A stretch of DNA of 45,858 nt from a virus (IMGVR_UViG_3300015370_000002:1-45858), one strand, 5' to 3'. Counted from the first letter of the stretch, positions 25,491 through 45,858 are shown. The notes: a model not told the origin generated them from the letters alone. Numbers and translations: made by a program.

Positions 25491-25650
25491 GAGAAGAATC
25501 ACAGGAGTGTACGTTTTCTGTCAGGGCGAGTGTCGTACTCCACGAACGCATGACGTGTTCATGGAAGTGAAGTACAACAAAGTGCTTCTGACAATAAAAT
25601 GCACCAAATGTAACCATGAACGTGACTTCTACGAGGAGGAGAAAGATTGA
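25483..25650 (+). CDS. Zinc-ribbon microprotein 3 (55 aa, TTG start)
   Basis: Manual translation MSKRRITGVYVFCQGECRTPRTH...IKCTKC; SD GAGGAG. Confidence 0.7.
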   Translation: MSKRRITGVYVFCQGECRTPRTHDVFMEVKYNKVLLTIKCTKCNHERDFYEEEKD

Positions 25651-25901
25651 GGAGGTATTGTAATAGTTGCCATTCCGACCAGTTTCACTTCACCGACTAC
25701 ACCAACGGTCGGCCGACACGTAACGCTGCTGGTCGGATAAACGGTTTCATCGTGGACATCTTGTGTTCGACTTGCCGTTCAGTCAACAGCGAAATGAAGA
25801 TGAACAAGCGGGAGTGGAGCGAACTTATGAACGCTATCAGCCGACCCGACCTCATTCCTAAAGAATGGGGGTCGGTGTTGGGGGGTAGCTGTGTCAAGTA
25901 G
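25647..25901 (+). CDS. Zinc-ribbon microprotein 4 (84 aa, TTG start)
   Basis: CNSCHSDQFH...LCSTC; SD GAGGAGGAG; TTGA overlap. Confidence 0.75.
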   Translation: MRRYCNSCHSDQFHFTDYTNGRPTRNAAGRINGFIVDILCSTCRSVNSEMKMNKREWSELMNAISRPDLIPKEWGSVLGGSCVK

Positions 25902-26112
25902 AACTCTGTCGTGTCCCAACTGTGACTCAACAAAGGGCTTCCGTATGTTGCTGGTCAAGGCTGAACAAGCCAAGCTCGGTGCGTACGTCATCCCTGGTGT
26001 CTGCAAGAAGTGTGAGAACGTGAGAATGTTCATCGCATCGGCAGACAGTTACCTGAACATGTGCAACAGTGCACCACTCGGACAACAGGCAACGCTATTG
26101 CTGACGGATTAG
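25891..26112 (+). CDS. Zinc-ribbon microprotein 5 (73 aa, GTG start)
   Basis: CPNCDSTKGF...VCKKC. Confidence 0.7.
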   Translation: MSSRTLSCPNCDSTKGFRMLLVKAEQAKLGAYVIPGVCKKCENVRMFIASADSYLNMCNSAPLGQQATLLLTD

Positions 26113-32200: not shown

Positions 32201-34109
32201 TGTGATGTCCATCTTCAACATCTACAAACTTTCCATCTTCTTTAATCAATATTGGGTCAAGCTCATTATTTTTATCTTTCAATAAATGGTTGATATCTTT
32301 ATCCATTTTGTCTTTTGTTTTTTCATCAGACTTTCTATAAATATCTTTCCATCCATCCACCTCCATCCCATTATTAAATTCTGGGATTGTTAACTTTTTA
32401 ATATCAATATAATCTTCCTTCTCTTCCTTCTCAGGTTTAACATCAAGTACATCGTTAACATCTTGGATGCTAAGACCAACAGGCAACTTACCATCTTTCT
32501 TGGCTTGTATGGCCTGTTGTGCGATCTGCGCCATAGCACCACCGAGCAGACCAAGAGTGGCACCACCAAATGCTGACATTATTAATCTGTCTTTTTTCTC
32601 ATTTGGATTTATCTCCCTAAATGTTTGTTCTGTTATAATATCTAATTCTTCTTGTAAAACTTCCGTAACCATTTCTTCCCCGGACATCAAAACTAGTGTC
32701 AGTATTTTATTAACAATAGAACTGGACACCTTATTTACTATTGTCTTGCCAAGTTGTGCTGGAACAATGCGCTCTAGAGCAATGTTTGGAATAGCATTGA
32801 ACAATCCTAATGTTTCTGCTTCATCTTCTGGAACACCATATTTCATTGCCTTTTCTTTTATGCTTTCAGCCTGTTCGCCAACCAATAAAGTCATACCGGC
32901 GGGGTGAATAAAGAAAGGTAGCTTGCCAAGAGTCTCAGCCCCCATATTAAATATAGTCTCTCCCGGGTACTTTGTTATTTTATCTTTGACGCTCGCAGTC
33001 TCCCACACCTCGCTATTCTGCATATAGGCAGAGTCATCCAGCTGATCAACAGCTTCTTTCATCTTCTGGAAAGGTATAATTCCTTTTTGTTCAGCAAATG
33101 TATATGCGTCTTTCCAGTCTGATTTTACCGCATTATACTTGTCTATTCTCTCCGGGGTTAAATCATATTGTAGCGTAGTGTCTTTAGACGGTCCCTCTGT
33201 GACCTCTCTTGCCGGTACATCCAGCGTACTCACCTCAGCAACGACAGCGGTTGTCTTATTAAAAATAAAATCAGAGAAGTAATTAAGCCCCTCGGTGATA
33301 GCATTAATCGCAGAAGTGCCTACTCTTTTTCTAAACTTAGAGCGCGCTTCTTTGTCTTCTTCTATCCTAGAGAAATCAAGTTTACCGTCTTTTACCGTAG
33401 GAATAATTGATGGAAATATCTTTGGAACATCACGAATAACACTCTTAGCGAAAGTTTTAACTGTAGATTCTTCTTTCCTAGCTTCCTGTTGAGCCACCGC
33501 AAAAAGAGAAGGTGCAGTAGACACCGGCTCTTCCACTTTCTCATCTTGAAACAAACTACTAAAAAAACTCTTAGCTTTACCAAGAGCAGTAACCGGGCTT
33601 TTAACTAGTTCTTTTGCGTATGTTTTATAAAACTCCTCTGGTTGGTTATTCCAATTAAGAACACGCTGTCGTGCCTCATTTAATCCTATAGCACCAGACT
33701 TGTAGTCTTCAATAGCTTTCCATTCAACAAGCATTTTACCCTCTTGTCTATTTTTAGCAGAAGCAGGTTTGTTAGAAATTCTTTCTAATATTGTTTTTTT
33801 ACTTTTCAATCTCTGCATGTTTGGATCATTCGAAGTACCGCCTAATGCAACCGGAATAATATGGTCACGTTCTGAACCGGCTTCTGTTTCTAACGAACCG
33901 TAACCACGTGGAGTAGTAGTAAGAGACGGCGCTCCAAGACTATCAAACATGCTTAAGAACTGACCACCCGATGGGAGTGTTTTAACTTGTGGTTGTTCTG
34001 CTTTCTTTACTTGTGGTTCAACATCTGGCGTAGGCTCGTCAAACAAGCCAGAAAAATCTATGCCAGTGGTTGACTTCTTGGTGGAGGTTGAGAATAATCC
34101 TTCAAACAT
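26265..34109 (-). CDS. Large polyvalent (probably virion-ejected) protein: HNH-like, two ParB-like, zincin metallopeptidase and N6-adenine methyltransferase domains
   Basis: ERDHIIPVALGG...N; VEDGHHR and VQNGHHRL; LFHEAFHH...EEWLA; VEPYAGA and YLDPPY; located at the end of the tail/ejection module. Confidence 0.85.
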   Translation of the reverse strand: MFEGLFSTSTKKSTTGIDFSGLFDEPTPDVEPQVKKAEQPQVKTLPSGGQFLSMFDSLGAPSLTTTPRGYGSLETEAGSERDHIIPVALGGTSNDPNMQRLKSKKTILERISNKPASAKNRQEGKMLVEWKAIEDYKSGAIGLNEARQRVLNWNNQPEEFYKTYAKELVKSPVTALGKAKSFFSSLFQDEKVEEPVSTAPSLFAVAQQEARKEESTVKTFAKSVIRDVPKIFPSIIPTVKDGKLDFSRIEEDKEARSKFRKRVGTSAINAITEGLNYFSDFIFNKTTAVVAEVSTLDVPAREVTEGPSKDTTLQYDLTPERIDKYNAVKSDWKDAYTFAEQKGIIPFQKMKEAVDQLDDSAYMQNSEVWETASVKDKITKYPGETIFNMGAETLGKLPFFIHPAGMTLLVGEQAESIKEKAMKYGVPEDEAETLGLFNAIPNIALERIVPAQLGKTIVNKVSSSIVNKILTLVLMSGEEMVTEVLQEELDIITEQTFREINPNEKKDRLIMSAFGGATLGLLGGAMAQIAQQAIQAKKDGKLPVGLSIQDVNDVLDVKPEKEEKEDYIDIKKLTIPEFNNGMEVDGWKDIYRKSDEKTKDKMDKDINHLLKDKNNELDPILIKEDGKFVDVEDGHHRVASYISAGREKIPFKKVPAPPIPVYKETGVLTTKILKELEGKTMVSKQFISDLTKRADIKKPERKVILETLETMPEGKKISAKEFAESVKVNLLPLKGKVQTGTGREVGYEHIVLNDSIRGDVITYGEAIYESPIKTQAGDKHFGAEEFPNYFGHIRFEDMADNKTRRVIEAQSDLFQKGGLESGVTQLQGASTKLTDTPISEIKKGKIITIRPDHGDMTPYQLRVVKLSKDESFVEGTIPGSEAETSIDKLSQYDNPTAHFYMVRKEVAKAAKDGIEKLQFPVGETAMKVEGLGSTQMWLRMKNGKYAGLGYEDSKLTIDTLKVGQEIAQSTQPSWIITEVLEDGKFKASPKNLFDSGDIKDLKAGKFTEKIEQIYEMNNEQFDISGKVDKSNPIYKFYETTLSKYLKLKYGAQRITDEQGVEWYEVDIKPEHKGAVEAFQIKEKLSELDITPAEAKVILKKLFPNDKDLRFTTGGKMDFDKDVYGTYANELITVLIDGGKVSSETLFHEAFHHYVQTYLTATERKALYAEVAKTHGDELGGKYGKKRLGPEEWLALNVEGYATGNKTFTGKIHKFLQSLITTLRRLAGKRTTVLNAYEAFLSGKTKKVGKGAFVRTGKQPAIRKQSFEDRFEKLTPAQKAIYKNKLAKERKLGMKYEEAKLVAMDRAEVGVVKKPSRVQKVVDADKVVPWEHEVGRLRELRGTEAGLTIDKYKNKIYDGEKIPPILVIELKDKSGTYYEVQNGHHRLAAYDELGIKKIPIEIAEREVAKKKEYPKDLQKQILEDIGFEGKEYTSNMEDNYSQFVDVYEKLKGTPGFLGLREKIDGGDVDTFKKIVKKHNLYDTDSDIFHSESMADHEVFEEFKDRLLSERPELVLGVKTAKEAGLTGKPPTKSEVAKIDNGISKLDPELKKMATPYFRPPRSLNARAFQLLGNKDTTVPLFSSIFNRWTNNGVDTIVEPYAGAFTLGAHSIQGAMRNGLKRYYANVYDIEKHTLIKAIQNGKLEEVKNAVKSSAQSLTNSILMIAQSEDKYVYDVFNTFLTKHPDSFIGSNAWKNYVRKIDLGKEVTVFKEDYAKFKPIFDKAVKEMDKTEVSDIASAADKAYIDKVSMRGNELISKQIGFQSFEDRVFGKYGMFNGFNDIDASFKVAKENGVLVDIGRGGENGWDFINRISIEDPAKTGFYLDPPYILSSQTYKGDQASKDFLQSHFGNADNFVTEHQKAFDNVKSGSRIVLTNDVENSYIKRILKEVPNETFQVYKEGMTPTSLMSSPETTPLVDEFFATSYNKKAKEIWADLEFLAQQIRRGGYTKKTYDRLKEHGVPEDTIKMLRIEDKYFKDLVKVKVEPNGEVSAMISKDALSYIERTSKIPKVNKKWMKTFSFGFVKKQAGDIVQGYETGGRFFMRIGEGFKNLLFDPIIAGERLAAIREKAIIKNKIPTVFKLKKAEAEQLWAFTASKQDKKITAPSADLSPKVRRAYNEIRDTVKELYPEVKQVALKNGREVGEIKNYTPLYTRSDIELIDQGGFDFVRKDPFFGSIKEREVDVPLDLYEKDYRKVMELWVNGVSRFIDVGSRTLPVKYLIDSIEFQEITGKDAHKKIREWYAHIVSPARPEGIMKGIRLLRTLNAFGVLSLKYTVILKQFLNVVDVWVLTSFKGIAKAGIKVSTNSPIARHASLSGSVQQRALGYEIEDLRGTVMKWVRKPAEYTDRLTAKITKIALMDQMIIRARKQGLKITAKEFKRIDRESDDIVDAIMGSMAQAEKPKYFRTELAKAVNTFFSQLNSKMQFYVTDIWKNEKLPPLAGSKKKLLAKALVALVVAGYIEQLINKLYFEDDPEEISKDIIKSIVGNFPLLGSIMFAFETGQPYSPSPILSNLIKIIMSASQGKTDKALWATAGFFGFAKQIENLITGGYTVLNGGVYDKKGKLLYKINSLPEQVRTLLKGKWGSKTGQKYFKDGPPLKPSTKLPKLPKLPKLPK

Positions 34110-34111
34110 AA

Positions 34112-35671
34112 TTATTGCATTAATTTAGCAATCTCTTCATCACTTTTGCCTTCATCTCTGTATTTCTTTACTAGATCGTCTAAATAAGTTTTAAAATCCT
34201 TAGCTATTTTGTCCTCTTCGGTTTGTCTAACATCAAATATCTTAGAGTACTCTTTTCTTTCTTTACCCATGAACTTCAACTTTTGTTCATTAGTCAACTT
34301 ATCAGCTCCGCTTAAAACGTCATCTAAAGACTTATCGACCTTAACAGTGCCAGCCTTAGTATTAACATAATTAGGATTATTCGGATTTTTATATCCTTTG
34401 AATTTTGTATCAAAAGTAGTTGGATTCAAACCTTGTTGTACCCATGCTACTCTAGCTTTTTTATAATTGTCCGGAGAAATGAAACCATCATCACCAACAA
34501 TGGGGCCGCCAGTTTTAGGGTCTACCCCTGCGGTAATCTGTTCAATCATTTTAGCAACCGCGTCCTTTTCTGTAGTGTCTTTAGTACTCGCAGCTCTACC
34601 CTTGCCAATAGCGCCACCACTTGCCTTGCTAATGATATTACCTTCTTCATCAAGAGTAACATAAGTAACATTGCCATATGCGTCCTCTTCAGAGAATGTT
34701 TTATTTTTAACATCAGCAGTCTTCATGCCGGTATATTTATTTCCGCCTATGGTTATCTCCTCTCCCTCTGGTAATTTTAATAACAAGTTAAGTATGTTAG
34801 TAGCGGCTTTTACTTGTTCTGATTGTGACTTTGCATTAGCGGCAGATTGCGTGGCGGCTTTGTATTGTTCAGAGAAACCAGAGCCGTAAATCTCGTCTAT
34901 AGAAGCCATTAAATCATCAGGGATATCACCGCCTACAGTAGCAATCTCTTTTAGTTGGTCCATATAACCAGCTTGTGTCTTTCTTTGTTGCTCTGCCTGC
35001 ATTCTCCCTTCTTGTAACGACTGTAGCTGTTGATTATAGGATACTTGCTGGGCCTTAAAGCGAGTCTCTTCTAAATCTCTAATCTGCGCGTCAATCTTAT
35101 CAGCCATCTCGAAGTCAAGCTTAGCCATGGCGGTTGCTTTTGTCTCAGTATAAGTAGCGATATCAGCGTCTATATTACTTTGCATTTCAGCCATGAACTG
35201 CATGCGAGAAGATGACGCGCCAAGACCACGAGTTATCCCCAGCCTGGCTCCTGCTCCGCCTATCTCTTTTTCCCCTCGTTCTTTTCTCTGGCCTATAAGT
35301 TCATCATACTCAGCACCGATCATAGCCTTCATCTGTGCAAGCCTCTTGTCGCCCTCTGTTTGAAACTCTCCCTCTTCTTCGTCTGAGACTAAGTCATCAT
35401 AACTAGATAAAGGCTTTAACGGTACAGACGTTGAAATACCATCATTCTTTAAATTCTGGTTGATGGTTGGTTTCTGTGTGGGGTCGTCTCCCCTTTTCTC
35501 AAATTGTCCACCGCCTTTGTGCATAAAGCCACGACGACCTATCTCGTCAAGATACCTTTGGTTTTCCCATAGTTTTGGGTCATCAGCGACACTGCTCAAT
35601 TCGCCTGTGGTTAGGTCTTTCCATGTTTGCGCGTAATCTATACCGCCTTTGGAGTCTTTTATAACTGGCAT
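34112..35671 (-). CDS. Internal virion/ejection protein
   Basis: Helical Q/A/E-rich protein, GITRGLGASS segment, directly upstream of the giant gene. Confidence 0.6.
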   Translation of the reverse strand: MPVIKDSKGGIDYAQTWKDLTTGELSSVADDPKLWENQRYLDEIGRRGFMHKGGGQFEKRGDDPTQKPTINQNLKNDGISTSVPLKPLSSYDDLVSDEEEGEFQTEGDKRLAQMKAMIGAEYDELIGQRKERGEKEIGGAGARLGITRGLGASSSRMQFMAEMQSNIDADIATYTETKATAMAKLDFEMADKIDAQIRDLEETRFKAQQVSYNQQLQSLQEGRMQAEQQRKTQAGYMDQLKEIATVGGDIPDDLMASIDEIYGSGFSEQYKAATQSAANAKSQSEQVKAATNILNLLLKLPEGEEITIGGNKYTGMKTADVKNKTFSEEDAYGNVTYVTLDEEGNIISKASGGAIGKGRAASTKDTTEKDAVAKMIEQITAGVDPKTGGPIVGDDGFISPDNYKKARVAWVQQGLNPTTFDTKFKGYKNPNNPNYVNTKAGTVKVDKSLDDVLSGADKLTNEQKLKFMGKERKEYSKIFDVRQTEEDKIAKDFKTYLDDLVKKYRDEGKSDEEIAKLMQ

Positions 35672-35697
35672 AAAATTAATGGTTAATAACTTTATTC

Positions 35698-35722
35698 AAC
35701 TGCCCGATAAGCTCAGGCAGTT
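35698..35722 (-). terminator. Intergenic hairpin
   Basis: AACTGCC / GGCAGTT inverted repeat. Confidence 0.45.
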
Positions 35723-35736
35723 TAAAAGGTTATTGT

Positions 35737-37197
35737 TTAAAGTTCATACTCTATATAATTTTTCCATTGTGTCGCGTCTCCACCAGCATCAAGCCTAAAA
35801 TAATTATATGGTGGCACAATAAAAGTAATAGGGATTTCATTTCTAGTCTCAAAATAACCACCCGAAGTACCACCGTACGCTGACGCAACAGCTATGACAG
35901 TTGATGGTGTCGCTGTGGCATCCATTAAAACAGTAACAGTTGTTGTAGCTGATTGCGATGAGACTCCAAGATAAACAGTTGCTATTACCATTATTGAATG
36001 GTTTGAATTATTTTGATAATTCTGTGCGAAAGCCATAGTAGTAGATGCGGTAGGAGTATCAACTGTATGATAATGAAGTGTAGTGGAATTTCCTTCTACT
36101 AATGAAGCTGTACTAGTTCCTCCAACATACAATGTAGTAGCCTCTACTATACTTAATGTAGAACTTCCACTTACGGCCAAATCCGTAATAGTCGTAGTAG
36201 CCATTGTAGTTGTAGCTTGAAATGTATGTTGTGCTGTCCAAGTGGGTTCCATATCACCCCGTATTGATAATCCATTACTATCAGCATATAAAAAATTCGT
36301 ATTATAATCTACACCCAAAGATCCATCACTTTTAGCTTCTATTCCTTGTGTAGTGGAAGCATTGATATAAATTTTACTATCTGTTACTCCAATCCCTCTA
36401 GTGGAAGAAGCAGTAAGCACAGAGAATGTAGTTGAGGTAAAATTATAGCTATTAGTAAAACCATCTAATGACCACTGTAAGTTAGTCCCGCTTGATCGGA
36501 TACAATAACTTGTGCCATTAAAACACAAACCTTTAGTATTAGTATAATCCCATAGACCGGAAACTGTGTTTGCTCCAGCAATAGTATGATCGCCATCAAG
36601 AGTTAAATATTGCTGAGAAAGATAAGTATCAGTATTAGATATAATAACTGGTTCACCAGGACTATGCGCTTTTATATTGTCGCTTGAAGTTGCTGTTGGG
36701 TTATCAAATCTATAGCCAAACGTACAACCAGTGAAAGTCTTGGTGGAGGTTGTAAGCCCGGTACAAGAGACTATCTCCGAGTTGGAAGCTCCTGGGTTAA
36801 TAGACAGAACAATCAAATCACCCAACACAGAGGTTGCGAGTTCGTTGTCGTCCTTAGTGGTAATCGAGGTGACTTTTAGAGTAGTATCCGAATGGCCCTC
36901 TGTCTTCTGTTCACCTAAATTTGTTTTATATTCTGTCGGTCTTTTTGGAGTAGCACCCAAGAAAGACTCGACATTATTATCATATATCTCAACTAGGTAA
37001 TTATTTCCAATATCAATTTCGTCTCCTGTGTATATCAAATCAGGGTTTTTAATATTATTTATATTTACAAGATTGGTAACCGTAGTGCCAAATTTATCAG
37101 CGATGATAGAAAGAGTATCTCCACCCGCGATTTCATAAGCTTGAACTGATCCAACTATCAGTAACGAAGCTAGTATATACATTAAAGTTTTTCTCAT
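35737..37197 (-). CDS. Signal peptide, LysM domain and tail fibre/needle-like protein
   Basis: MRKTLMYILASLLIVGSVQA; YEIAGGDTLSIIADKFGTTVTNLVNINNIKNPDLIYTGDEI (LysM); EIVSCTG...AHSPGEPV tail motif; C-terminal TFIVPP. Confidence 0.8.
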   Translation of the reverse strand: MRKTLMYILASLLIVGSVQAYEIAGGDTLSIIADKFGTTVTNLVNINNIKNPDLIYTGDEIDIGNNYLVEIYDNNVESFLGATPKRPTEYKTNLGEQKTEGHSDTTLKVTSITTKDDNELATSVLGDLIVLSINPGASNSEIVSCTGLTTSTKTFTGCTFGYRFDNPTATSSDNIKAHSPGEPVIISNTDTYLSQQYLTLDGDHTIAGANTVSGLWDYTNTKGLCFNGTSYCIRSSGTNLQWSLDGFTNSYNFTSTTFSVLTASSTRGIGVTDSKIYINASTTQGIEAKSDGSLGVDYNTNFLYADSNGLSIRGDMEPTWTAQHTFQATTTMATTTITDLAVSGSSTLSIVEATTLYVGGTSTASLVEGNSTTLHYHTVDTPTASTTMAFAQNYQNNSNHSIMVIATVYLGVSSQSATTTVTVLMDATATPSTVIAVASAYGGTSGGYFETRNEIPITFIVPPYNYFRLDAGGDATQWKNYIEYEL

Positions 37198-37198
37198 A

Positions 37199-39052
37199 TT
37201 AAGATGTTATACCGAGTTCTTTTTGCTCAGTTGAATAAATATGCTGTTTAGCATTGTCTATATATAATGCATAGTAATCTACCACCACCTGCTGTCCGGA
37301 ATCTTCTGTCTCAAACTCTACCTGTAAGTTGCGCGCGTATATTGTTGGCAATGGAAATATAACCTCAAATGGATTCAGATCACCAATATCGTCCACAGTA
37401 CCGCCAAGAGGTTCGGTACCGAGAGCAAAGCCACCAAGCACATTTAGCTGTTGTTGCACTACATAATCACTATCAGTGCCATTAATTTCCATCTCTTGGG
37501 TACTTACACTACCATTAATACCATATTTAATCCTTATCTTAAGCTTAGTACCCGATGAAATAGCTCCTAGTATACCAATATGTGATGCTATCTTGCGCAT
37601 CCAAGGTTCACCAAAGGTTTCAATTCTCTCTGTTCTAACCCACTTATACGGTGCTCCATTCTTAGAATAGCCATCTAACGCCTTAAAGTTATCGCTTTGA
37701 AGTCCAGATCCGAAGTATAAATTGCCCTGATATATGCACATATCAGCTATATACCAGTCATGTAAACCTAGGTTTACAGCTAATCTACCTTTATCATTTC
37801 TAGACATCCAAACATTTATCCCCATGTTATTAACAGTTTGGTCATCATCAGACTTACCAGACATGAACCACACGCGGTCTTTTGTTAGATACTCAAGGCA
37901 GGCCTCATCCCAAACAAATTTTTTAATTGTTGGCCTCACACCATCAGTCAGATCCGTAACATTAAATACACCTTGGTCAGAAATCTGCGCTATATATTTA
38001 AGTCCACCGTTGGGAGTAATATACCACACTTGATCTCCCATCTTTCTGATTGCCTTCTGGTTAGAGCAACCCTCGTCTGCTATATCTTTTCTTAGTACTG
38101 TTCTTGTTGTCGCTGTTGGAAAATCAAATTTAAAAGCTATTATCTTCTTTTTACTAAAAACTAATATCCAATTATCAATATACGAAAGAGCTGTAATATC
38201 ACCATTCATCTGCGGAAAGTCTTCAAAGCCACCATCTGATGGATTCGCTCCACTCTCGCTTGTTAAATCTCCTATATCACAAAATGTAACTTGATTAGGC
38301 GTGGCTGTCATCCCAGCTTGGAATAATCTTGATTGTGTGCTTAATAATATAGAACTATTATCAAGTGCTGATAAGGTTGTGCTATCCACCTTTTGCGCTA
38401 CACCAGCACCGTCATCTTCGCCGGTTGGATTAGGAGTAACGCCAGTAAGAGTATTAGTAGACAACCCAGTATAAGCATAGGCTGTCCCATCTACAATCAC
38501 AGAGCCAGTTGAGGTAAAGCCTCTAGCAGAAGCCGTTGTGCTCCCATTCAAGACAATTGTTGTTGCAGTTGTTGAACCTATCTTGCCAAAAGCCCCATTC
38601 CATATTCTTCGAGTTTCAACTGCATTACCATAAACTAGTTGATCCGTACCAGTATCATTAAAAGGAGCAAAGCCAAAGTCAGCCAATTTAGTTGTCCCGT
38701 CAGACAATGTTCTTGACCTGGTTAAACTTCCTTCTAAAATACTCCATTCACCGTCTGCTGAATTTCTGGTGTCTTCTTTGTTTAAATATTCAAGTATATA
38801 ATTTGTTGCGTCATCTCTTACCTGTAACATAATCTCCACGCCATCACCTTTTATATAAGTATACTTCCTAACAATTGCATGAGCAGCATTCTCTTGGTTA
38901 CCAAACAAAGAATAGCCGGGCATAGGCGCGGCTTGAGATGACGAACCAAGATTAGAATTTAAAGAATACGCACACTCACCTTTTCCAAGCTCCGTGGCAT
39001 TTCTTAGACTGTTCATTGACCCGAATTTAGTTGTGTTGATCCATTTAGGCAT
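37199..39052 (-). CDS. Tail nozzle / packaged-DNA stabilisation protein (P22 gp10 / T7 tubular B-like)
   Basis: About 620-aa beta-propeller-like protein (GDITAL...ILVFSKK, EGCSNQKAI); follows the adaptor gene. Confidence 0.7.
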   Translation of the reverse strand: MPKWINTTKFGSMNSLRNATELGKGECAYSLNSNLGSSSQAAPMPGYSLFGNQENAAHAIVRKYTYIKGDGVEIMLQVRDDATNYILEYLNKEDTRNSADGEWSILEGSLTRSRTLSDGTTKLADFGFAPFNDTGTDQLVYGNAVETRRIWNGAFGKIGSTTATTIVLNGSTTASARGFTSTGSVIVDGTAYAYTGLSTNTLTGVTPNPTGEDDGAGVAQKVDSTTLSALDNSSILLSTQSRLFQAGMTATPNQVTFCDIGDLTSESGANPSDGGFEDFPQMNGDITALSYIDNWILVFSKKKIIAFKFDFPTATTRTVLRKDIADEGCSNQKAIRKMGDQVWYITPNGGLKYIAQISDQGVFNVTDLTDGVRPTIKKFVWDEACLEYLTKDRVWFMSGKSDDDQTVNNMGINVWMSRNDKGRLAVNLGLHDWYIADMCIYQGNLYFGSGLQSDNFKALDGYSKNGAPYKWVRTERIETFGEPWMRKIASHIGILGAISSGTKLKIRIKYGINGSVSTQEMEINGTDSDYVVQQQLNVLGGFALGTEPLGGTVDDIGDLNPFEVIFPLPTIYARNLQVEFETEDSGQQVVVDYYALYIDNAKQHIYSTEQKELGITS

Positions 39053-39054
39053 AT

Positions 39055-40338
39055 TTACCATTGTTTAGCGCTGATTCTTCCATTACTATTACCCTCTACT
39101 TCAAAAGTGTTTTTTTCTCTTGTCAGTGGGTTGCCCTCCTGCAATATAGCGAGAGGCAAGTCTGTTTTAATTTCAGTCATGACCCGGACATAATCATTGT
39201 TATTCTGCTCTTTTTGTGGCACAAGATACTTCAAAGAGAGATTAACAAACAAATTGAATAAATGATCCGGCAACAACAGCGTTTCAGTAGTCGCAACAGT
39301 GCCTGTAGTAAAATGGTCCTGCCAAGTGCCACCGGCGCTAACCATATAGGTAGAGAAATAAATCAATTCCATTTCTAGCGGATCATACATATCAATCTTA
39401 TCGATCCTTACATTAGAACTATCTGTCAACCCACTGGTGTATGTAACTCTAACTTCAAAATATTCTAAATCAGAACTATCTGGACTTCCAGTCTCTGTAG
39501 CGCCAGCCCAGTCGAAATTAACTCTATTCCAAGTATTTTGCCAGTCACCGCCGTCTGCTGGTGTGGTGACAGTTCTGGACCAGTAATTAGCCTTGGTGGC
39601 GGGTGTAGCAGAATCGTCAGAACCCCACACAAACGTCACAGAGCTGATTAGAGCGAGGTTAGCGGCTGATACGTTATGCAACCCGAGTGAAAGCCTAAAA
39701 TGGCCATATCCCTCAATATCGCTACCGTCTATTGATGTTGTAAAAACAGTTGATGTGTAAATCTCAGCATAGTTATTAGCTGACTGGCTAACATCTATAT
39801 TGAACTTCAATGAATTGCCATCTTTTCCACGATTTTCATCCAAAGTCAGTGTCGTAGCATCAGAATTTGTAGTTTCACTGGCCCAAGTTCTCCCATCAGT
39901 TAAACTATTCATCGAATCAACACCGGTGATACTATTTTTATAATGAGAAAGTACGCGCATTATCTTTGACCCTTCTCTATCTTCAAAATTCACCTTGTTG
40001 TCATGTATCTTTGATCCTTCAAGTACGGAGAAATCATTGGCGTCTATCTCCTCAAACTCTTTATAATGCCTATTGTTGTTATCGTTGACAAATCTCAAGT
40101 CTTTGAATGCCTTAAAATCACTAACACCGACGTTCGTTACCATAGAATAGTCAACCTCGTCAGTCAAATATTCAAAAAAAGCTCTCTTCTTTGTGAAATT
40201 CCAATTAGATTTTTGCTGTAAAAAATCAATGGCCCGGTTATAAGCACCGTATCTTGTGCCTTGAGACAATGGGGATTCGGTCAAATTTCTTAATTGTAAC
40301 TGTACCTCACTATCTATTTTTGCTGCTGTAATGGACAT
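39055..40338 (-). CDS. Head-tail adaptor (gp4/tubular A-like) with large inserted beta domain
   Basis: N-terminal YNRAIDFL...WNF and C-terminal LLLPDHL...LSL helices flank a lectin-like insert. Confidence 0.6.
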   Translation of the reverse strand: MSITAAKIDSEVQLQLRNLTESPLSQGTRYGAYNRAIDFLQQKSNWNFTKKRAFFEYLTDEVDYSMVTNVGVSDFKAFKDLRFVNDNNNRHYKEFEEIDANDFSVLEGSKIHDNKVNFEDREGSKIMRVLSHYKNSITGVDSMNSLTDGRTWASETTNSDATTLTLDENRGKDGNSLKFNIDVSQSANNYAEIYTSTVFTTSIDGSDIEGYGHFRLSLGLHNVSAANLALISSVTFVWGSDDSATPATKANYWSRTVTTPADGGDWQNTWNRVNFDWAGATETGSPDSSDLEYFEVRVTYTSGLTDSSNVRIDKIDMYDPLEMELIYFSTYMVSAGGTWQDHFTTGTVATTETLLLPDHLFNLFVNLSLKYLVPQKEQNNNDYVRVMTEIKTDLPLAILQEGNPLTREKNTFEVEGNSNGRISAKQW

Positions 40339-40360
40339 ATTTTTTAATTAATTTACTTAT

Positions 40361-40388
40361 CCTCATCTCCTGATTATTGGAGACGAGG
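40361..40388 (-). terminator. Hairpin after the lysis-like genes
   Basis: CCTCATCTCC / GGAGACGAGG with AT-rich extensions. Confidence 0.45.
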
Positions 40389-40396
40389 TAAATAAA

Positions 40397-40555
40397 CTAT
40401 TTGCCAGCTATGCCTATTCTTAAAGTAATTAAACCTAACCCTTCTAAAATTAGTTGATTATCGGCCTGTAAAATTCCTAATAAAATCATTAATGCACCTA
40501 CGATGAAAGTCTTTTTACCTTTTAGTATCTCTATAAACTTGTTTAGTTGCTCCAT
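40397..40555 (-). CDS. Holin-like small membrane protein (52 aa)
   Basis: Manual translation MEQLNKFIEILKGKKTFIVGALMILLGILQADNQLILEGLGLITLRIGIAGK; GKKT...LR.G motif with two hydrophobic segments. Confidence 0.65.
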   Translation of the reverse strand: MEQLNKFIEILKGKKTFIVGALMILLGILQADNQLILEGLGLITLRIGIAGK

Positions 40556-40564
40556 ATAAATTAA

Positions 40565-41575
40565 TTAAGAATTAATTACTATTTGTTTTCCTTTGTAATT
40601 AGAAGGAAATTTATCTAATTGTTTTCTTGGGATAGCTTTGCTGTAATCACCGTAAATAGCTTTTAGTGCATCACCGTCTGACCAAGCTAGGTATTCTCCC
40701 TCGTATTTCCCGCCAACAGCTAATGATAAAATTGATGAGCCTACCTGGATATGAGTTGCTGTTTCTTCGTTCTTTTTTTTTACTATAAGCATCATCTTCA
40801 TGGCGGCGTTAATCACATAATTTTTATCTAAAATCTTGGTATATGGATTGTAACTATCACCTACTACTACCTTTTCTGGAGTACCTCCATATAAAACCAT
40901 GGCGTGGTCGCTCTGTACTCTGCCACAAAACTCTACATTAGTATCCCAAGGACTACACACTGGTACTGCAATAACTGGTGGAGCTTCTAAAACATGAGAT
41001 AACATGTTCTTATAAAGGTCTTCTTTGTAAGCCTGTCTGCTATGGAATATCCATGAATATTCATTGCCAAAGTGTATAAGCCATTTTAACCCCAGTTGTT
41101 TCATTTCTAAGATTGGTTGTCTAAAAAAGTTTGCTTTACTTGAAAAATCATCTTTGTGCCTGCTCTCTGGTACTAATCCATAATGATTAATACTCCAAGC
41201 TACTTGTGTTAAAGAATTACCACTATCAGTAGTTCCTGACATTACAGCCTGAAAGCTCTCTGAATAGTTTACTTTGCCGTCTTCACCTATATAACCTTCA
41301 TCTTTTAAAAATTTGACTGTTTCTTCTGGTAATAGCCCATTCATTAATTGGTAATTGGTTTGAGTTTCCATCACCTCACAACTTGATTGGTTAGTACAAG
41401 TTGAAGTTTCGCCAGCCATACCACTTGCTTGATTCTCTGGTTTGCTTTTGTACTGTTCCCAGTCTTCCCACTTTTCTACTAAGTTGGGATATTCTGCACT
41501 CCAACCAGCTCCTAAATTGTAATCAGTATCTAGTACTTGTTCTATGACTGCTGATTTTGGTACTATTTTACTCAT
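40565..41575 (-). CDS. Papain-like (C1-type) cysteine peptidase
   Basis: ENQ...STCT (oxyanion Gln, catalytic Cys), YGLVPES, SDHAMVLYG (His), VGDSY. Confidence 0.7.
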   Translation of the reverse strand: MSKIVPKSAVIEQVLDTDYNLGAGWSAEYPNLVEKWEDWEQYKSKPENQASGMAGETSTCTNQSSCEVMETQTNYQLMNGLLPEETVKFLKDEGYIGEDGKVNYSESFQAVMSGTTDSGNSLTQVAWSINHYGLVPESRHKDDFSSKANFFRQPILEMKQLGLKWLIHFGNEYSWIFHSRQAYKEDLYKNMLSHVLEAPPVIAVPVCSPWDTNVEFCGRVQSDHAMVLYGGTPEKVVVGDSYNPYTKILDKNYVINAAMKMMLIVKKKNEETATHIQVGSSILSLAVGGKYEGEYLAWSDGDALKAIYGDYSKAIPRKQLDKFPSNYKGKQIVINS

Positions 41576-41654
41576 ATATTATTCTTAAAACTATTAAAGT
41601 CGCTAAAACTATTATTATTATCCAGCTTGCTTTGTGTAAAGCGTCTGGGTACAT
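41568..41654 (-). CDS. Single-TM micropeptide (28 aa)
   Basis: MYPDALHKASWIIIIVLATLIVLRIIYE; sits between two lysis-like genes. Confidence 0.45.
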   Translation of the reverse strand: MYPDALHKASWIIIIVLATLIVLRIIYE

Positions 41655-41655
41655 A

Positions 41656-41958
41656 CTATCTAAATAAAATCGCAGTCAACATTCCCACCCCCTGCAAAAT
41701 AATGAAACCACCTATTATCATCATCCACTTGATATTGCCTCGCATTTGGACTATATCTTTATTCATGTGGAATAAATGATTATTCATTATTTTACCTATC
41801 ATGCCTTTTAAATCCTCCATCTTTTTATCTAGTTTTTCCATTTTATTATCTGACGTACTCATATAATCATTAAACCTCTGAACGTCTATCTCAAAATCAC
41901 GTACCCTATTATGGTCTTCTTTTAACATCTTTAAAGTTTCGTCAGAGATTTGGTTCAT
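41656..41958 (-). CDS. Coiled-coil protein with C-terminal TM (XhlA/holin-like)
   Basis: NNHLFH motif, then KWMMIIGGFIILQGVGMLTAILF. Confidence 0.65.
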   Translation of the reverse strand: MNQISDETLKMLKEDHNRVRDFEIDVQRFNDYMSTSDNKMEKLDKKMEDLKGMIGKIMNNHLFHMNKDIVQMRGNIKWMMIIGGFIILQGVGMLTAILFR

Positions 41959-41959
41959 A

Positions 41960-42370
41960 TTAACAGTCACCTTTTTCTAGCCATTGGAAATACAAATCTT
42001 CAATAGGCACTCCTTCGCTAGCGTCTAATTCCATATAGCCATTGCATCTTTCTTTTTCGACCTTTTCTACTAATTCCATGTCATCATAACTGATGGCTTT
42101 CTTATCTTTAATATCCTTAAATACCTTAGCTTTCTTAACGTCATAATCACCTTTCTCAAAAGCCTGGCCATGCTTATCATAAACTAGGTAAGGTATCTCT
42201 TTCTTTTTACTTATCTTAACAGTTTCTCTTGCTACTTCTTTTTTACCCACGACAGGTTCTACTATCTGGTTCTTCTGCAAAATAATCCCTACACAAATCA
42301 AACCTAACACCAATCCTACAATTAAGATTATTACTTTTTCTTCTTTAATAAATTCTATTATTTTATTCAT
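41960..42370 (-). CDS. Membrane-anchored hypothetical protein
   Basis: VIILIVGLVLGLICVGIIL N-terminal TM. Confidence 0.65.
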   Translation of the reverse strand: MNKIIEFIKEEKVIILIVGLVLGLICVGIILQKNQIVEPVVGKKEVARETVKISKKKEIPYLVYDKHGQAFEKGDYDVKKAKVFKDIKDKKAISYDDMELVEKVEKERCNGYMELDASEGVPIEDLYFQWLEKGDC

Positions 42371-42376
42371 ATTAAT

Positions 42377-42940
42377 TTAATCATCAATACGTTTAAGATA
42401 CATTTGAACTGCTACGGGAGAAGCATGACCTACATTGCCATCATATTGCGAAGTAAGAGCATCGACTTTCATCTGCAATATTAACCAGTCATTAGCTGCT
42501 AAATCTACGACAAATGTATTAGCGATATTAAATCCCCAACCACCACCAGCTGCTTGCACAACTTGGCTACCCATAGCTGCTGTACTACTATTTACTACCA
42601 CTTGTGCAAAATGTGTATGAGGGTCTGTGTCTGCTATTCCATTAATTGAATAAGACACTTCATATTTACCTGCTATATCTACATATACATGGCTTGGATT
42701 AGTTGAAGTGCTGTGAGTAATATTATTTAATTCAACTTGACCACCTGTAAAATCAACATCTATATAACTTGTAGAGATACCAGTTACCTCTGCAATCCTA
42801 TATACCATCCCGTAGGCTGGTATTTGTGTTTTGGATGTAGCTCTCAAATATTGCCCACCAAAGATATGGTCAGCTAAAGATACTAATCCGCCAATGCTTA
42901 CTAAGGCTACTAGCCCGTATAATGCTATTTTTTTAATCAT
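42377..42940 (-). CDS. C1q/BclA-C-like domain protein with signal peptide, paralog 3
   Basis: NITHSTSTN...VDIAGKYEVSY...VVDLAANDWLIL. Confidence 0.75.
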   Translation of the reverse strand: MIKKIALYGLVALVSIGGLVSLADHIFGGQYLRATSKTQIPAYGMVYRIAEVTGISTSYIDVDFTGGQVELNNITHSTSTNPSHVYVDIAGKYEVSYSINGIADTDPHTHFAQVVVNSSTAAMGSQVVQAAGGGWGFNIANTFVVDLAANDWLILQMKVDALTSQYDGNVGHASPVAVQMYLKRIDD

Positions 42941-42944
42941 ATTT

Positions 42945-43517
42945 TTAATCATCTATACGTTTAATAACTATTTGTGCTGCCACTGGAGTATCTAAATTGG
43001 CTTCACCATCCCAGTCAGAAGCAGCTGCATTATCCGTTCTTCCTTGTAAAGTAAAGTAGTCATTAGCATTTAATTCCACTATAACAGTGTCTTCTAATAC
43101 AAAAGCATAACTAGCACCAGTTGATAATACTGTCCCACTACCTAATATTTCAGTACTATTATTTACTAATAACCTTGCATAAGTAGTGTGAACATTACTA
43201 TTGCAGAAACCATTTACCATGTATGATATTTCATATAACCCGTCTTGGTCTACTGTTATTTGCGCAGGATTTGTTGATGTGCTATGGGTAATACCTTGCG
43301 ATACCACACTTCCACCAGTAAATTCTGTGTCAGTCCATCCAGCATTAGTGAAACCAGCTTGCTCATCTAAACGATATATCATGGCGTAAACAGGAATTTG
43401 TGTCTTTGAAGTAAATCCTACCATCCTAGATTTGCCAAAGATGTGATCAGCTAAGGATATTAATCCACCTATACTTACTAGGGCTATTGCTCCGTATAAT
43501 ACTATTTTTTTAATCAT
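42945..43517 (-). CDS. C1q/BclA-C-like domain protein with signal peptide, paralog 2
   Basis: GITHSTSTN...ITVDQDGLYEISY...IVELNANDYFTL. Confidence 0.75.
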   Translation of the reverse strand: MIKKIVLYGAIALVSIGGLISLADHIFGKSRMVGFTSKTQIPVYAMIYRLDEQAGFTNAGWTDTEFTGGSVVSQGITHSTSTNPAQITVDQDGLYEISYMVNGFCNSNVHTTYARLLVNNSTEILGSGTVLSTGASYAFVLEDTVIVELNANDYFTLQGRTDNAAASDWDGEANLDTPVAAQIVIKRIDD

Positions 43518-43521
43518 ATTT

Positions 43522-44076
43522 TTAATCGTCTATTCTTACTATACTAAATGTCCCTGAATAATCAGGAGTAAAATCACTAGCAAAATCTTCTGTTACTATA
43601 TTGCCACCACTACCTGCGCACAATAATTCTACTGTATCACTAGCACTTAACCTAACAATAAAGCTGTGAGCAATGTCAGCAGCAAAGCCTGCCGTCAAAG
43701 TATGGGCAATAAAACCATCTTGCACCATAGTCCCATTTACTTCTACTTTACAAAAAGAATTTCTAATATTTGCAGAGAATAATCTCATGTGATAATTAAT
43801 CTGATATAAGCCACTTAAATCAACGGTTAATGTCCCGTTATTTGTACTTGTGCTGTGTGTTATGTTTAATAATTCTACTTGTGAATCCCATGTGCTAGTG
43901 CTATATGCAGTAGTAAAAGTTTGGTCATCTGTCTTATACACATGTGCATAAGCTGATATTTGTGTCTTTGAAGTAAAACCTAACATCCCACCACCAAAAA
44001 TACTACTACCTAATGAAAGTAAACCACCAATGGATATACACGTTATTCCTATGTAGATTAGTATTTTTTTAATCAT
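43522..44076 (-). CDS. C1q/BclA-C-like domain protein with signal peptide, paralog 1
   Basis: NITHSTSTN...LTVDLSGLYQINY...IVRLSASDTVEL. Confidence 0.75.
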   Translation of the reverse strand: MIKKILIYIGITCISIGGLLSLGSSIFGGGMLGFTSKTQISAYAHVYKTDDQTFTTAYSTSTWDSQVELLNITHSTSTNNGTLTVDLSGLYQINYHMRLFSANIRNSFCKVEVNGTMVQDGFIAHTLTAGFAADIAHSFIVRLSASDTVELLCAGSGGNIVTEDFASDFTPDYSGTFSIVRIDD

Positions 44077-44085
44077 ATTATTTTA

Positions 44086-44799
44086 TTACATACATGAGTC
44101 AGTTGAAGCTGTTAATACTCCGTCTAGTACGGTGATGTAAGTTATACCAGCACCGTCAGTATCTTGCATTGGTATACAACCAGGTTGGCTAGTATCGCCA
44201 ATAGCGAATGTCGATGTACCAGAACCACTTACAAAACTAAGCATACCAGACCCTGTTGAACCTAAATTACAATCTACATTGGCATCAGTACCAGCACATG
44301 TAATATTTGGTCCAGTCCCAGTATCACCACTAGATATTTCTAAATAATTAACAGAATTATCAACTGGTGTGAATTTTAACATTGTGTTTACATTTCCTAG
44401 TGAATCCTCTGAACGAATTTCTTGATTGCCTACACCTGCACCACCTAGAAAGTCTAGCCTTCCATCATAATTCATTCCAAACAAATCACCGAAAGCATCA
44501 GCGATCACAAAACTTTTAGAAGAACTACTAATTACATCTGACCTAACAAAGAAAATTTCATCGAATGGAGTATTTGGATTATCTGCATCGTATGAACCAC
44601 CTCTGAAATAAAGCGAACCAGAGTCTACACCGATGGTGGAGCTATTAACAGCAGTTTTATAATTAGAGCTGATTGTAAACGATTCAGCTCCTCCAGCAGT
44701 ATCTGAAAGGCTGGTAATATAAGTAGCTTTTACTTGCAACCCTACCACAACACATGCGGTTATAACTATGGCTGCAAATATACCCAAGTATTTTTTCAT
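44086..44799 (-). CDS. Fibre/spike-like protein with signal peptide
   Basis: MKKYLGIFAAIVITACVVVGLQVKA; VNYLEI...GTDANVDCNLGSTGSG beta repeat; C-terminal GCIPMQDTDGAG. Confidence 0.6.
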   Translation of the reverse strand: MKKYLGIFAAIVITACVVVGLQVKATYITSLSDTAGGAESFTISSNYKTAVNSSTIGVDSGSLYFRGGSYDADNPNTPFDEIFFVRSDVISSSSKSFVIADAFGDLFGMNYDGRLDFLGGAGVGNQEIRSEDSLGNVNTMLKFTPVDNSVNYLEISSGDTGTGPNITCAGTDANVDCNLGSTGSGMLSFVSGSGTSTFAIGDTSQPGCIPMQDTDGAGITYITVLDGVLTASTDSCM

Positions 44800-44804
44800 A
44801 TATT

Positions 44805-45749
44805 TTATTTTACATACCACGTTGACGAGGTATTTATTTTAGTTATTTTAGTTGCGTTATAAAGAGTCGATATCTCATTACCTGTCAAAACTCGATTATA
44901 TATTCTCACATCATCCATCTTACCATCAAAATTGCCTTTTACAGTTGGATGATTAAGTGCTCCTACATAGATATTCTGTGCAGAAGAAAATTCACTCGGC
45001 TGAGTAGCACTAGAAGCCCTAGAAACTGCATTAAGATATAATCTAGTATTCTGTACCCCGTCATAAGTATAAACCAAGTGATACCAATTATTTGGATTAT
45101 TATTACCAGTAGTGGCTGAAGTAATAGTCACCAAACTACCACCACTACCTTGCCCAATACGACCAAATACACTACCGTTGGCGTTCATATATATCTGAAA
45201 ATATCTAGGTGCATCATAATAACCCATCATATTGACTGCTTCGACAACGTCTTGTTTATACCAAAATGCAATACTAAACGCACTTGTCTGACTGAATAAA
45301 GCATTTAAGTTGGTATTAGCTAGTGATACATAATCAGTATTACCATCAAAATCCCAAGCCTCATTTAATACACCATTAGCCCAAGAAGTGCCACCGTTAT
45401 TTGTTCCATTATCATTGTGTCTACTCTTATCAAAAATTGTATTACCATTCACATCATGGGCATCAAAATTCCAATAACCCAACATTCCATCTCTAACCGC
45501 ACCAGATACTTTTGTAACTCTATAAGCTGAATATCTTGCAATCTCGTCAGAAGTTAATAATCTTTGCCAAACTTTAAAAGAATGTATCTTACCGTCATGA
45601 CTTGACCCACCAGAAAAAGAAGCACCAATATATATATTGGCTGGATTTTGTGGTGTCCAAGCCGTAGCATCAGCTGTTAGTATTTGATTTCCATTTAACC
45701 AAACATTAGTATTGCCAGAAGTACCAGATATATGAATTGTATTTACTTC
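44805..45749 (-). CDS. C-terminal part of the LamG/concanavalin-A-like protein (starts at 498)
   Basis: GYWNFD, FDGNTDYV, FSIAFW, WYHLVYTYDG, FDGKMDDVRIYNRVLT; a preceding LamG unit ends KVWQRLLT. Confidence 0.9.
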   Translation of the reverse strand, partial: EVNTIHISGTSGNTNVWLNGNQILTADATAWTPQNPANIYIGASFSGGSSHDGKIHSFKVWQRLLTSDEIARYSAYRVTKVSGAVRDGMLGYWNFDAHDVNGNTIFDKSRHNDNGTNNGGTSWANGVLNEAWDFDGNTDYVSLANTNLNALFSQTSAFSIAFWYKQDVVEAVNMMGYYDAPRYFQIYMNANGSVFGRIGQGSGGSLVTITSATTGNNNPNNWYHLVYTYDGVQNTRLYLNAVSRASSATQPSEFSSAQNIYVGALNHPTVKGNFDGKMDDVRIYNRVLTGNEISTLYNATKITKINTSSTWYVK

Positions 45750-45858
45750 ATCTTTATTCCAATAAGGTTCGTAAGTTGCCAAAGGTATTGTCTCTACGAT
45801 TGTATTTCCTAACAATATATACAAAATATTATTTTGAACATCAGCCCCTTTCTGCACA
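45750..45858. repeat. Terminal direct repeat, copy 2
   Basis: Identical to 1-109. Confidence 0.97.

Follow-up and report, generated by a model that had tools for sequence, protein, structure and literature searches.

We analyzed IMGVR_UViG_3300015370_000002:1-45858, a viral DNA stretch of 45,858 nucleotides (the window, by which we mean this whole stretch), with a focus on ten late genes whose products begin with predicted Sec-type signal peptides, one predicted lipoprotein signal, or predicted N-terminal membrane anchors. The ends of the window repeat over 109 nt (1-109 = 45750-45858), and it is therefore the complete circular genome, 45,749 bp in length, of an uncultured, podovirus-like, short-tailed phage. 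The leaders are retained in homologs, paired cysteines occur in the proteins behind them, and one leader gene holds a fixed place directly after the gene for the tail nozzle. Putative export of the leader proteins out of the cytoplasm is well supported, because the leaders are tripartite, one ends in a lipobox, cleavage-type sites are kept despite drift of the surrounding sequence, lipoprotein and ordinary leaders switch within one family, alternative retention devices occur, and cysteines are paired. For the set as a whole, a candidate lysis cassette apart, the best explanation in our view is that the proteins are exported, retained on the envelope and captured by particles, a reading to which we give slightly less than even credence. 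Textbook assembly of tailed phages is wholly cytoplasmic.

Predicted export leaders on ten late genes

All ten genes named in the preliminary description exist, on the minus strand, and each product opens with lysine or arginine, after which comes a hydrophobic stretch. They are named here by their start positions, and are listed together with one leaderless gene that lies amid them; a slash marks a predicted cleavage site.

1-498, minus strand: 5′ part of a 480-residue LamG protein, with the signal-anchor-like leader MKKITYILLAFVVLGIAFWYF (core of 18 residues, then TRDD); continues over the circle junction.
44805-45858, minus strand: 3′ part of the same LamG protein, with two concanavalin-A-like (Laminin_G_3) stretches (Pfam, PHROG, in-frame junction).
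519-1499, minus strand: predicted lipoprotein of 326 residues, leader MKKIVIIFGLICSVLLVAGC with lipobox V-A-G-C (LLVAG/C), C-terminal fibre knob, Cys318/Cys323 pair (sequence reading and homologs).
1503-1982, minus strand: leader protein of 159 residues, leader MKNIIVKVLIGALALLGVSVGG, 2 Cys in the mature part; conserved in the related loci L001 and L008.
1984-2547, minus strand: leaderless glycosyltransferase-like protein of 187 residues (DTD motif); conserved in L001 and L008.
2603-3352, minus strand: protein of 249 residues with a very basic n-region (8 Lys/Arg), hydrophobic core FAVIIIALLVVGSSVKAVA/SS with an AVA/S cleavage-type site, and 4 Cys; leader retained in the L001 and L008 orthologs.
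35737-37197, minus strand: protein of 486 residues with signal peptide MRKTLMYILASLLIVGSVQA/YE (VQA/Y site), LysM, conserved core and variable Thr/Ser-rich C-terminal part; directly after the nozzle-like gene.
41960-42370, minus strand: protein of 136 residues with one N-terminal transmembrane helix (core of 19 residues), holin-like candidate; no family match.
42377-42940, minus strand: paralog 1, 187 residues, leader, possibly C1q/BclA-like (BclA_C match below cut-off).
42945-43517, minus strand: paralog 2, 190 residues, leader (BclA_C 27.4 bits against a cut-off of 38).
43522-44076, minus strand: paralog 3, 184 residues, leader (BclA_C 30.9 bits against 38; C1q 17.6 against 23.7).
44086-44799, minus strand: protein of 237 residues, leader MKKYLGIFAAIVITACVVVGLQVKA/T (VKA/T site), mature part with 4 Cys that form two close pairs; no known family match.

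Leaders were called by simple rules and by reading the sequences by eye. A Sec signal peptide was taken to consist of a positive n-region, an h-region some 7-15 residues long and a c-region whose −3 and −1 positions are occupied by small residues; for a lipoprotein signal, the h-region had to end in [LVI][ASTVI][GAS]C. On this basis, 3352, 37197, 44799 and the paralogs 42940, 43517 and 44076 (MIKKI..SIGGL.SLA/D or SLG/S) carry signal peptides of the signal peptidase I type, the assignment of 1982 is less clear, the leader of 498 is likely a signal anchor, one of two or three anchors among the ten, and the VAGC lipobox that had been read at 1499 was confirmed. The portal, terminase, capsid, scaffold, 427-residue adaptor-like, 620-residue nozzle-like, 519-residue and 2614-residue proteins have no leader, in agreement with the earlier statement that capsid, portal, adaptor and nozzle lack one.

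We also applied a uniform rule to open reading frames (ORFs) of at least 100 residues in the window and in three control phages; to be flagged, a product had to have an N-terminus of net positive charge, 12 or more consecutive uncharged residues, and a Kyte-Doolittle mean, taken over 12 residues, of 2.2 or higher. On the minus strand of the window, 10 of 32 distinct ORFs were flagged, namely nine of the ten named genes and one spurious antisense ORF, and on the plus strand 1 of 15, which was likewise spurious and antisense to the giant gene. The rule flagged 1/33 ORFs in T7 (gene 4.2), 3/40 in Mu (the spanin region and gp19) and 1/48 in SPP1 (a start that lies within the terminase gene), with no tail or fibre protein among them. 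Given nine named genes flagged against almost none in the control phages, the enrichment of leaders is real and far beyond chance.

Comparison with relatives led us to reject a start-codon artefact, as the leaders recur across homologs and orthologs, and all families that could be followed keep them. In the closest relatives by capsid identity (L001, 79%; L008, 74%; L002, 58%), the capsid gene and a small conserved gene are immediately followed by leader genes, the orthologs of 3352 in L001 and L008 retain the Ala-x-Ala-type site as well as the leader, and further lipoboxes are found in L001 (6070-6831, LTAG/C) and in L015 (3414-4478, VVG/C). Type IV pilin leaders, which are short and basic and end in Gly, with Phe or Met at +1 and Glu at +5, were also considered; the G/F..E pattern is present in none of the ten.

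The cysteine content differs between the two groups of late proteins. The mature parts of the ten leader proteins hold 0, 2 (plus the lipid Cys), 2, 4, 4, 2, 0, 1, 2 and 4 cysteines, mostly as close pairs, and cysteine makes up 0.92% of residues in the leader proteins vs 0.38% in 19 leaderless late proteins, with none at all in the adaptor, the 519-residue and the 2614-residue proteins. The Cys pair of the fibre knob is present in the exported forms (the window, P0004, P0005 and L016 9269-10498) and missing in the leaderless P0006 and P0007; it is also missing in the leader-bearing protein at L001 6843-7877, and the rule is thus not strict.

The preliminary description had the leaders continue into fibre, LamG, C1q-like and decoration domains, of which LamG and the fibre knob stand and the C1q-like and T4 gp9/gp10 labels remain below the Pfam cut-offs. 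The gene at 498 has the leader ascribed to it, but spans the circle junction: the LamG ORF at 44805-45857 shares its frame, giving one 480-residue protein with no stop in between. This protein matches PF13385 (Laminin_G_3; 1.4e-32, 113.4 bits against a cut-off of 27.6, two stretches) and PHROG 8510, "virion structural protein" (3.7e-22). The 326-residue lipoprotein matches PHROG 20556, "baseplate protein" (3e-5), and reaches 22.6 bits against a cut-off of 25 for the T4 gp9/gp10 N-terminal domain PF07880. Within its family, P0004 has the lipobox LLLAG/C and P0005 a non-lipobox leader ending AIA/H, with no Cys at that place; identity between the mature parts is 53-54% overall and much higher across the final 180 residues. 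P0006 and P0007 are distant, leaderless relatives that have only the C-terminal knob in common with this family, and P0007 resembles an ordinary tail fibre. For the three C1q-like paralogs, the best Pfam scores (PF00386 and PF18573; 17.6/23.7 and 30.9/38) are both below the gathering cut-off, their profile had no sequence match in the PDB, and a family scan of viral contigs returned no matches. Their one outside homolog, P0001, keeps the leader, which is also the best conserved part among the three paralogs (the DNA repeat D1 included). The leaderless protein at 1984-2547 matches PHROG 1574 (2e-14) and PHROG 12406, "glycosyltransferase" (1.6e-4), and Pfam Anp1 below the cut-off (0.0015).

The lipoprotein, LamG, 237-residue and C1q-like genes are absent from L008 in spite of its 74% capsid identity, and relatives of the accessory genes form six consecutive leader genes in L016, whose head genes are unrelated to those of the window phage; these genes therefore appear to be an accessory, mobile set. 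Genes of the leader cluster overlap or lie a few bases apart, and no promoter or terminator signal above chance was found in 40300-45858, which argues that the cluster is read with the late operon. A moron, with its own promoter and terminator and odd composition, fits poorly: no such signals rose above chance, and the GC content is only slightly lower (0.34-0.35 vs ~0.39). Apart from the inserted domain of the adaptor, Pfam, PHROG and Atlas yielded no candidate for a leaderless fibre in this genome. The idea of receptor decoys was dropped, as the leader proteins show no within-genome similarity to leaderless fibres in any locus.

The 486-residue family and the tail region

Gene 37197, which encodes the 486-residue protein, follows two leaderless tail genes.

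37199-39061, minus strand: nozzle-like tail protein of 620 residues, leaderless (Atlas structural neighbours are viral clusters, TM 0.81-0.86; orthologs in 8 loci).
39055-40338, minus strand: adaptor-like protein of 427 residues, leaderless, with an inserted sugar-binding-like domain (Atlas SU10_adaptor clusters).

In seven of the eight loci with a nozzle homolog (L008, L009, L010, L011, L012, L014 and L015), the genes run in the order adaptor, nozzle, leader-bearing homolog of the 486-residue protein, a protein of 450-800 residues, and a giant protein, and nozzle identity among the loci drops to 30%. This kept place suggests that the leader gene is a core part of the tail region in a broad group of uncultured phages and no occasional passenger. 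The exception is the distant locus L013, in which the homolog is leaderless and the order differs. L010 (GC 50%) has Shine-Dalgarno sites and the other loci do not, and the arrangement of adaptor, nozzle and leader gene therefore appears not to be tied to one host type.

The family search gave 191 matches. Of 59 aligned members, 54 pass the hydrophobic-N-terminus rule, and three of the five that fail show a visibly truncated leader; conservation of the leader in homologs, the check proposed with the preliminary description, thus speaks for genuine leaders and against start artefacts. The leaders mostly end in Ala-x-Ala. They are followed by LysM in ~20 members, by one of two other small modules in ~10 and ~14 (YGY..ADIDYW and LYDYY..LPS..ER..CGI), or by an uncleaved-looking anchor in ~8, the module-less members having the helix followed by R/K/Q without a cleavage-type site. 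We read the modules and the anchor as probable interchangeable means of envelope retention. Pfam returned no match for the two other modules (N-terminal modules B and C).

In the window protein, LysM (PF01476) spans residues 21-63 (5.8e-11, 42.6 bits against a cut-off of 20.9), and the conserved core covers about residues 85-195, with E141, C145, C158, G161 and H178 near-invariant and the Cys145/Cys158 pair conserved in at least 90% of the family. An AlphaFold2 model built on the family alignment has a predicted local distance difference test (pLDDT) score mostly above 90 for residues 20-65 and 85-195, and below 50 for residues 362-486. Profile A4 for this protein recovered LysM only, and no catalytic domain was detected by Pfam, PHROG or profile searches. 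The nozzle and the 486-residue protein had 0 matches among 50,697 GenBank phage records; the phage appears distant from cultured phages. Sequence searches of the PDB with the 336-, 620- and 427-residue proteins gave no matches either.

The assignment of the adaptor comes from Atlas, where SU10_adaptor clusters score 0.91 and one structure row reaches the naming bar, which makes it, like the nozzle assignment, a lead only; the copy of Pfam searched gave no match to the SU10-type adaptor PF24175. The protein (39055-40338, minus strand) contains a large inserted beta-rich domain, and some of the neighbouring Atlas clusters pair SU10_adaptor with CBM_4_9. The adaptor itself may thus bind host sugars. 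In gene order (adaptor and nozzle, then other tail or internal proteins) and in its adaptor- and nozzle-like proteins, the region resembles SU10-type podovirus tail modules, from which it differs in that the gene after the nozzle carries an export signal.

Probable export, proposed particle capture and competing readings

On the reading we favor, at least nine of the proteins would cross the host cytoplasmic membrane by way of host Sec, signal peptidase I and the Lgt/LspA machinery, and would be kept on the outer face of the envelope, without folding in the cytoplasm; a lipid anchor, an anchor helix left uncleaved or wall binding through a module such as LysM would retain them there. In a single-membrane host, they would be on the cell surface or in the wall. 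With lower confidence, we propose that the exported fibre- and lectin-like proteins would be captured by particles at lysis as host-recognition gear, in an assembly of two compartments: the nozzle-adjacent 486-residue protein would become a distal fibre or needle, and the lipoprotein, LamG, 237-residue and three C1q-like proteins would be a swappable accessory set.

The host was approached through relatives. Scans of genome and metagenome collections with the capsid found no relative, but the search with the 486-residue family reached two genome contigs, of which one is L015, a phage contig of 44 kb that shares a bin with the 1.2-Mb genome G002. The ribosomal operon of G002 has 36% GC and lacks Shine-Dalgarno sites, as does the window phage. 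Searches of G002 for ribosomal protein L30, Omp85 and LpxC gave no match, and L15 comes immediately after S5; LspA and Lgt are present. Its taxonomic order comprises 24 genomes of 0.6-1.2 Mb, with a phylum sample of similar size, and G002 would fit an ultra-small, single-membrane bacterium like those of the candidate phyla radiation (CPR). The CPR-like host of the preliminary description thus gains indirect support from one binned relative and from the common lack of Shine-Dalgarno sites, and is plausible only, binning being weak evidence and the completeness of G002 not given. A Bacteroidota host, considered for the absent Shine-Dalgarno sites, is not the first choice, as the Bacteroidota-type promoter pattern is not enriched (3 found vs 2.86 expected) and the early promoters of the window are of the ordinary TTGACA-N17-TACA[AC]T kind. 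Joining host and mechanism, we picture a clade of uncultured tailed phages, probably infecting CPR-like bacteria, that assemble the head and tail core in the cytoplasm, export disulfide-bonded fibres, the distal fibre included, through Sec, and park them on the envelope until capture at lysis; we offer this picture tentatively, as one that stays clearly short of even credence.

A cultured phage has a comparable layout, and qualifies the word "unconventional" used earlier for such a route. In Cellulophaga phage phi10:1 (NC_021802), gp091-gp095 all pass the leader rule, and gp091-gp094 are annotated in the record as "structural protein, experimental MS/MS proteomics". The likeness lies in consecutive late genes behind the tail genes, with classical signal peptides and fibre-like or pectate-lyase-like products; it was drawn by layout and not by sequence, and phi10:1 differs in being a siphovirus of a diderm Bacteroidota host whose record does not mention the leaders. 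The proteomics reportedly goes back to Holmfeldt et al. in 2013; our literature search on Cellulophaga phages found nothing.

The 42370 protein, earlier counted as an exported appendage, does have its membrane helix. However, its N-terminal flank is net-neutral and its C-terminal flank basic, and its large domain is therefore more likely cytoplasmic, which would make it an N-out anchor. Two leaderless genes lie next to it.

41656-41970, minus strand: coiled-coil protein of 104 residues with a C-terminal transmembrane helix, XhlA-like layout (Pfam XhlA E 0.049, below cut-off).
40565-41575, minus strand: leaderless protein of 336 residues, beside the adaptor gene in relatives too (synteny; Cys/His-peptidase-like by eye).

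Together, the 136-residue, the tail-anchored 104-residue and the 336-residue proteins most likely represent a putative lysis cassette, in which the Cys/His-peptidase-like protein may act as a lysis enzyme. Pfam and PHROG searches of the whole genome recovered no recognised endolysin domain. Spanins (Rz/Rz1) combine a small inner-membrane anchor bearing a periplasmic coiled coil with a small outer-membrane lipoprotein, usually encoded by overlapping or adjacent genes. We rejected them here, as the 326-residue lipoprotein is beta-rich and has a fibre knob, the anchors are not coiled-coil, and PHROG and Pfam gave no spanin match.

Export need not lead into particles, and the evidence does not separate particle appendages from host-surface proteins; of the earlier suggestion that the proteins are exported and either added at exit or used to remodel the host surface, the export part holds and the choice between its branches does not follow. 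Proteins assembled from fibre tips and lectin domains could instead remain with the infected cell or its debris and there mask receptors, exclude superinfecting phages or mediate adhesion, much as T5 Llp and the Cor lipoproteins do or as the exported fibres that predatory or episymbiotic bacteria own themselves, a serious possibility that we nevertheless consider doubtful. It would accommodate several findings that weigh against capture: the C1q-like paralogs have only ~10 residues between predicted cleavage and globular domain and no obvious virion-attachment part, the six leader genes in a row in the unrelated backbone of L016 fit free-standing envelope proteins at least as well, and the absence of the lipoprotein/LamG/237-residue/C1q cluster from the close relative L008 makes the cluster dispensable. 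It would also suit the alternating retention devices of the 486-residue family, the glycosyltransferase-like gene within the cluster and the sugar-binding-like insertion of the adaptor, which could serve adsorption by itself (again a lead only), and it recalls the layout of the cell-owned MAT fibres of Bdellovibrio, as far as the excerpts of PMC10769870 describe them. Capture faces further difficulties of its own. Cleavage sites were called by eye and by a simple rule, without a trained predictor; the strong conservation of the paralogs' leader is unusual for an export signal and would fit specific anchoring; the phi10:1 annotation records co-purification with particles, not location on them; and the meeting of an exported protein with a particle before lysis lacks an explanation. 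Set against a purely cell-bound role are late co-transcription with virion genes, with no promoter or terminator of the cluster's own, and the core position of the 486-residue gene between nozzle and internal-protein genes down to 30% nozzle identity, which would be odd for an exclusion factor. The same holds for the annotation of the phi10:1 leader proteins as found in particles, and for the near-absence of the families from the 401 CPR-like cellular genomes searched: the 486-residue family occurs in 1/401, which is the binned phage contig itself, and the knob family gave 1 weak match. Host-derived adhesins were rejected on the latter counts (1/401 each). Because of the fibre-type parts, the core position of the 486-residue gene, the absence of a leaderless fibre candidate and the phi10:1 record, we place capture by particles slightly ahead of a cell-bound role, and each may hold for different members.

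We consider two further readings improbable. The hydrophobic N-termini, with no use in export from the producing cell, could travel inside the tail or capsid and enter the target membrane at infection, as those of ejection or channel proteins do, or anchor in a lipid layer of the particle. The 486-residue gene indeed sits where podoviruses such as P22 and T7 encode needle and ejected proteins, and in the C1q-like paralogs no part is better conserved than the leader; but an insertion helix would need neither Ala-x-Ala motifs nor a lipobox, both of which are kept while the leader sequences drift, lipobox and non-lipobox leaders swap within one family, close Cys pairs point to an oxidising compartment, and ten such proteins far exceed known ejection sets. 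The capsid, moreover, is HK97-like and comes with portal and terminase, and we know of no membrane-containing relative among phages with this equipment. A herpes-like or enveloped tail-less particle was likewise judged unlikely, given the adaptor- and nozzle-like proteins. Alternatively, most of the set could be lysis proteins, comprising a secreted wall-binding lysin, holin-like anchors and spanin-like pairs of lipoprotein and anchor. The combination of signal peptide and LysM does resemble secreted endolysins, PHROG endolysin matches cover the LysM part, the 136- and 104-residue membrane proteins adjoin the conserved 336-residue protein, and a recognised endolysin domain is missing anywhere in the genome. 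Yet no leader protein contains a detectable catalytic domain, the proteins are large, beta-rich and C-terminally variable, unlike spanins, and LamG and the fibre knob bind and do not lyse, so that a lysis role would plausibly account for no more than 42370 and perhaps 37197.

Export signals are already known from phage proteins, among them receptor-blocking lipoproteins, Lom, Bor, secreted endolysins and spanins. T5 Llp, Cor (T1/phi80-type), lambda Lom and Bor, and TP-J34 Ltp resemble the window set in their phage-encoded export or lipoprotein signals, often beside tail or receptor-binding genes, and act on the envelope of the producing cell; they occur singly, are small and not fibre-like, and in many cases are expressed early or from a prophage. 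The window set, in contrast, has ten members, mostly large, beta-rich and paralogous, packed in a late operon, with one in a core place after the nozzle. Lys44 of Oenococcus phage fOg44 is likewise made late and combines a cleavable signal peptide with a module for wall binding; the 486-residue protein differs from it in having no detected catalytic domain and a long, variable, fibre-like C-terminal part. Phage-encoded envelope proteins are thus already known, and what is added here is a whole set of fibre-like late proteins that includes a core tail-region gene. The Bdellovibrio bacteriovorus MAT fibres, again as seen in parts of PMC10769870, are encoded by chromosomal genes of the cell for prey recognition, whereas the window family lies in phage genomes; this comparison, too, concerns layout only. 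According to the excerpts of PMC6199706 and PMC8144416, fibre-type diversification targets in phages lack the signal peptides and transmembrane regions of cellular surface targets. LamG genes of CPR phages have been speculated to aid host adhesion (PMC12911398), in an article whose main text does not contain the word "signal". Our literature search found no paper describing export signals on tailed-phage fibres.

Were assembly in two compartments true, it would be a new route for tailed phages. Routine export of fibre-like late proteins would imply either an extracytoplasmic step of virion assembly or a dying host coated with fibre-derived binding proteins, and either would change the interpretation of host range, receptor masking and the "auxiliary" LamG genes of CPR phages. 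Annotation pipelines would then misclassify such genes, and disulfide-bonded fibres would need export-competent expression systems for structural and applied work. The 486-residue family is a concrete test object, being large, fixed after the nozzle gene and confidently modelled in its core.

Other features of the genome

The late genes occupy the minus strand (1-13,400 and 26,265-45,858) and the early genes the plus strand (13,853-26,112). Recognisable late products include the large terminase (PHROG 38, 9e-101; ~30% identical to terminases of Mu-like phages), a 636-residue portal-type protein (PHROG 332), a scaffold-like acidic protein and an HK97-type capsid protein (Phage_capsid_4, 46.9 bits); downstream of the tail genes, the order includes the 519-residue and then the 2614-residue protein. 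The latter (26265-34109, minus strand) has zero Cys and a short ParB-like stretch of nuclease or DNA-binding type at residues 1348-1405 (PHROG 1033, 1.2e-8), and giant proteins of 1062-1542 residues take its place in relatives; a role inside the virion or as an ejected virion protein is probable. No alternative genetic code needs to be invoked, since table 11 leaves every late ORF open (stops 37 TAA, 11 TAG and 3 TGA).

Early genes encode a primase-helicase-like protein (DUF3987 and CHC2 finger), an SNF2/DEAD helicase, a cytosine methylase fragment and an Acb2/Tad1-like protein. The last of these, 89 residues long (23097-23366, plus strand), has an Acb2/Tad1 hairpin domain (7e-11, above cut-off) and is likely a sponge for cyclic-nucleotide defence signals. 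Three exact promoter-like sites of the form TTGACA-N17-TACA[AC]T precede early genes (13449-13702 and 17651-17679), and DnaA-box-like words (TTATCCAC) lie near 13483 and 13655 in the divergent early intergenic region, which suggests early transcription by host sigma-70 and a DnaA-dependent origin. A tRNA-Ile gene with anticodon TAT is found at 23558-23645 (plus strand). Two more small proteins with one internal transmembrane helix each, of 89 residues (11379-11648, minus strand) and 131 residues (22236-22631, plus strand), fall outside the ten-gene list and have no family match. The early region also contains perfect direct repeats of 29 nt (24437-24465 and 24679-24707) and 21 nt (18615-18635 and 25085-25105), the 29-nt repeat preceding two small genes and taking in their start context.

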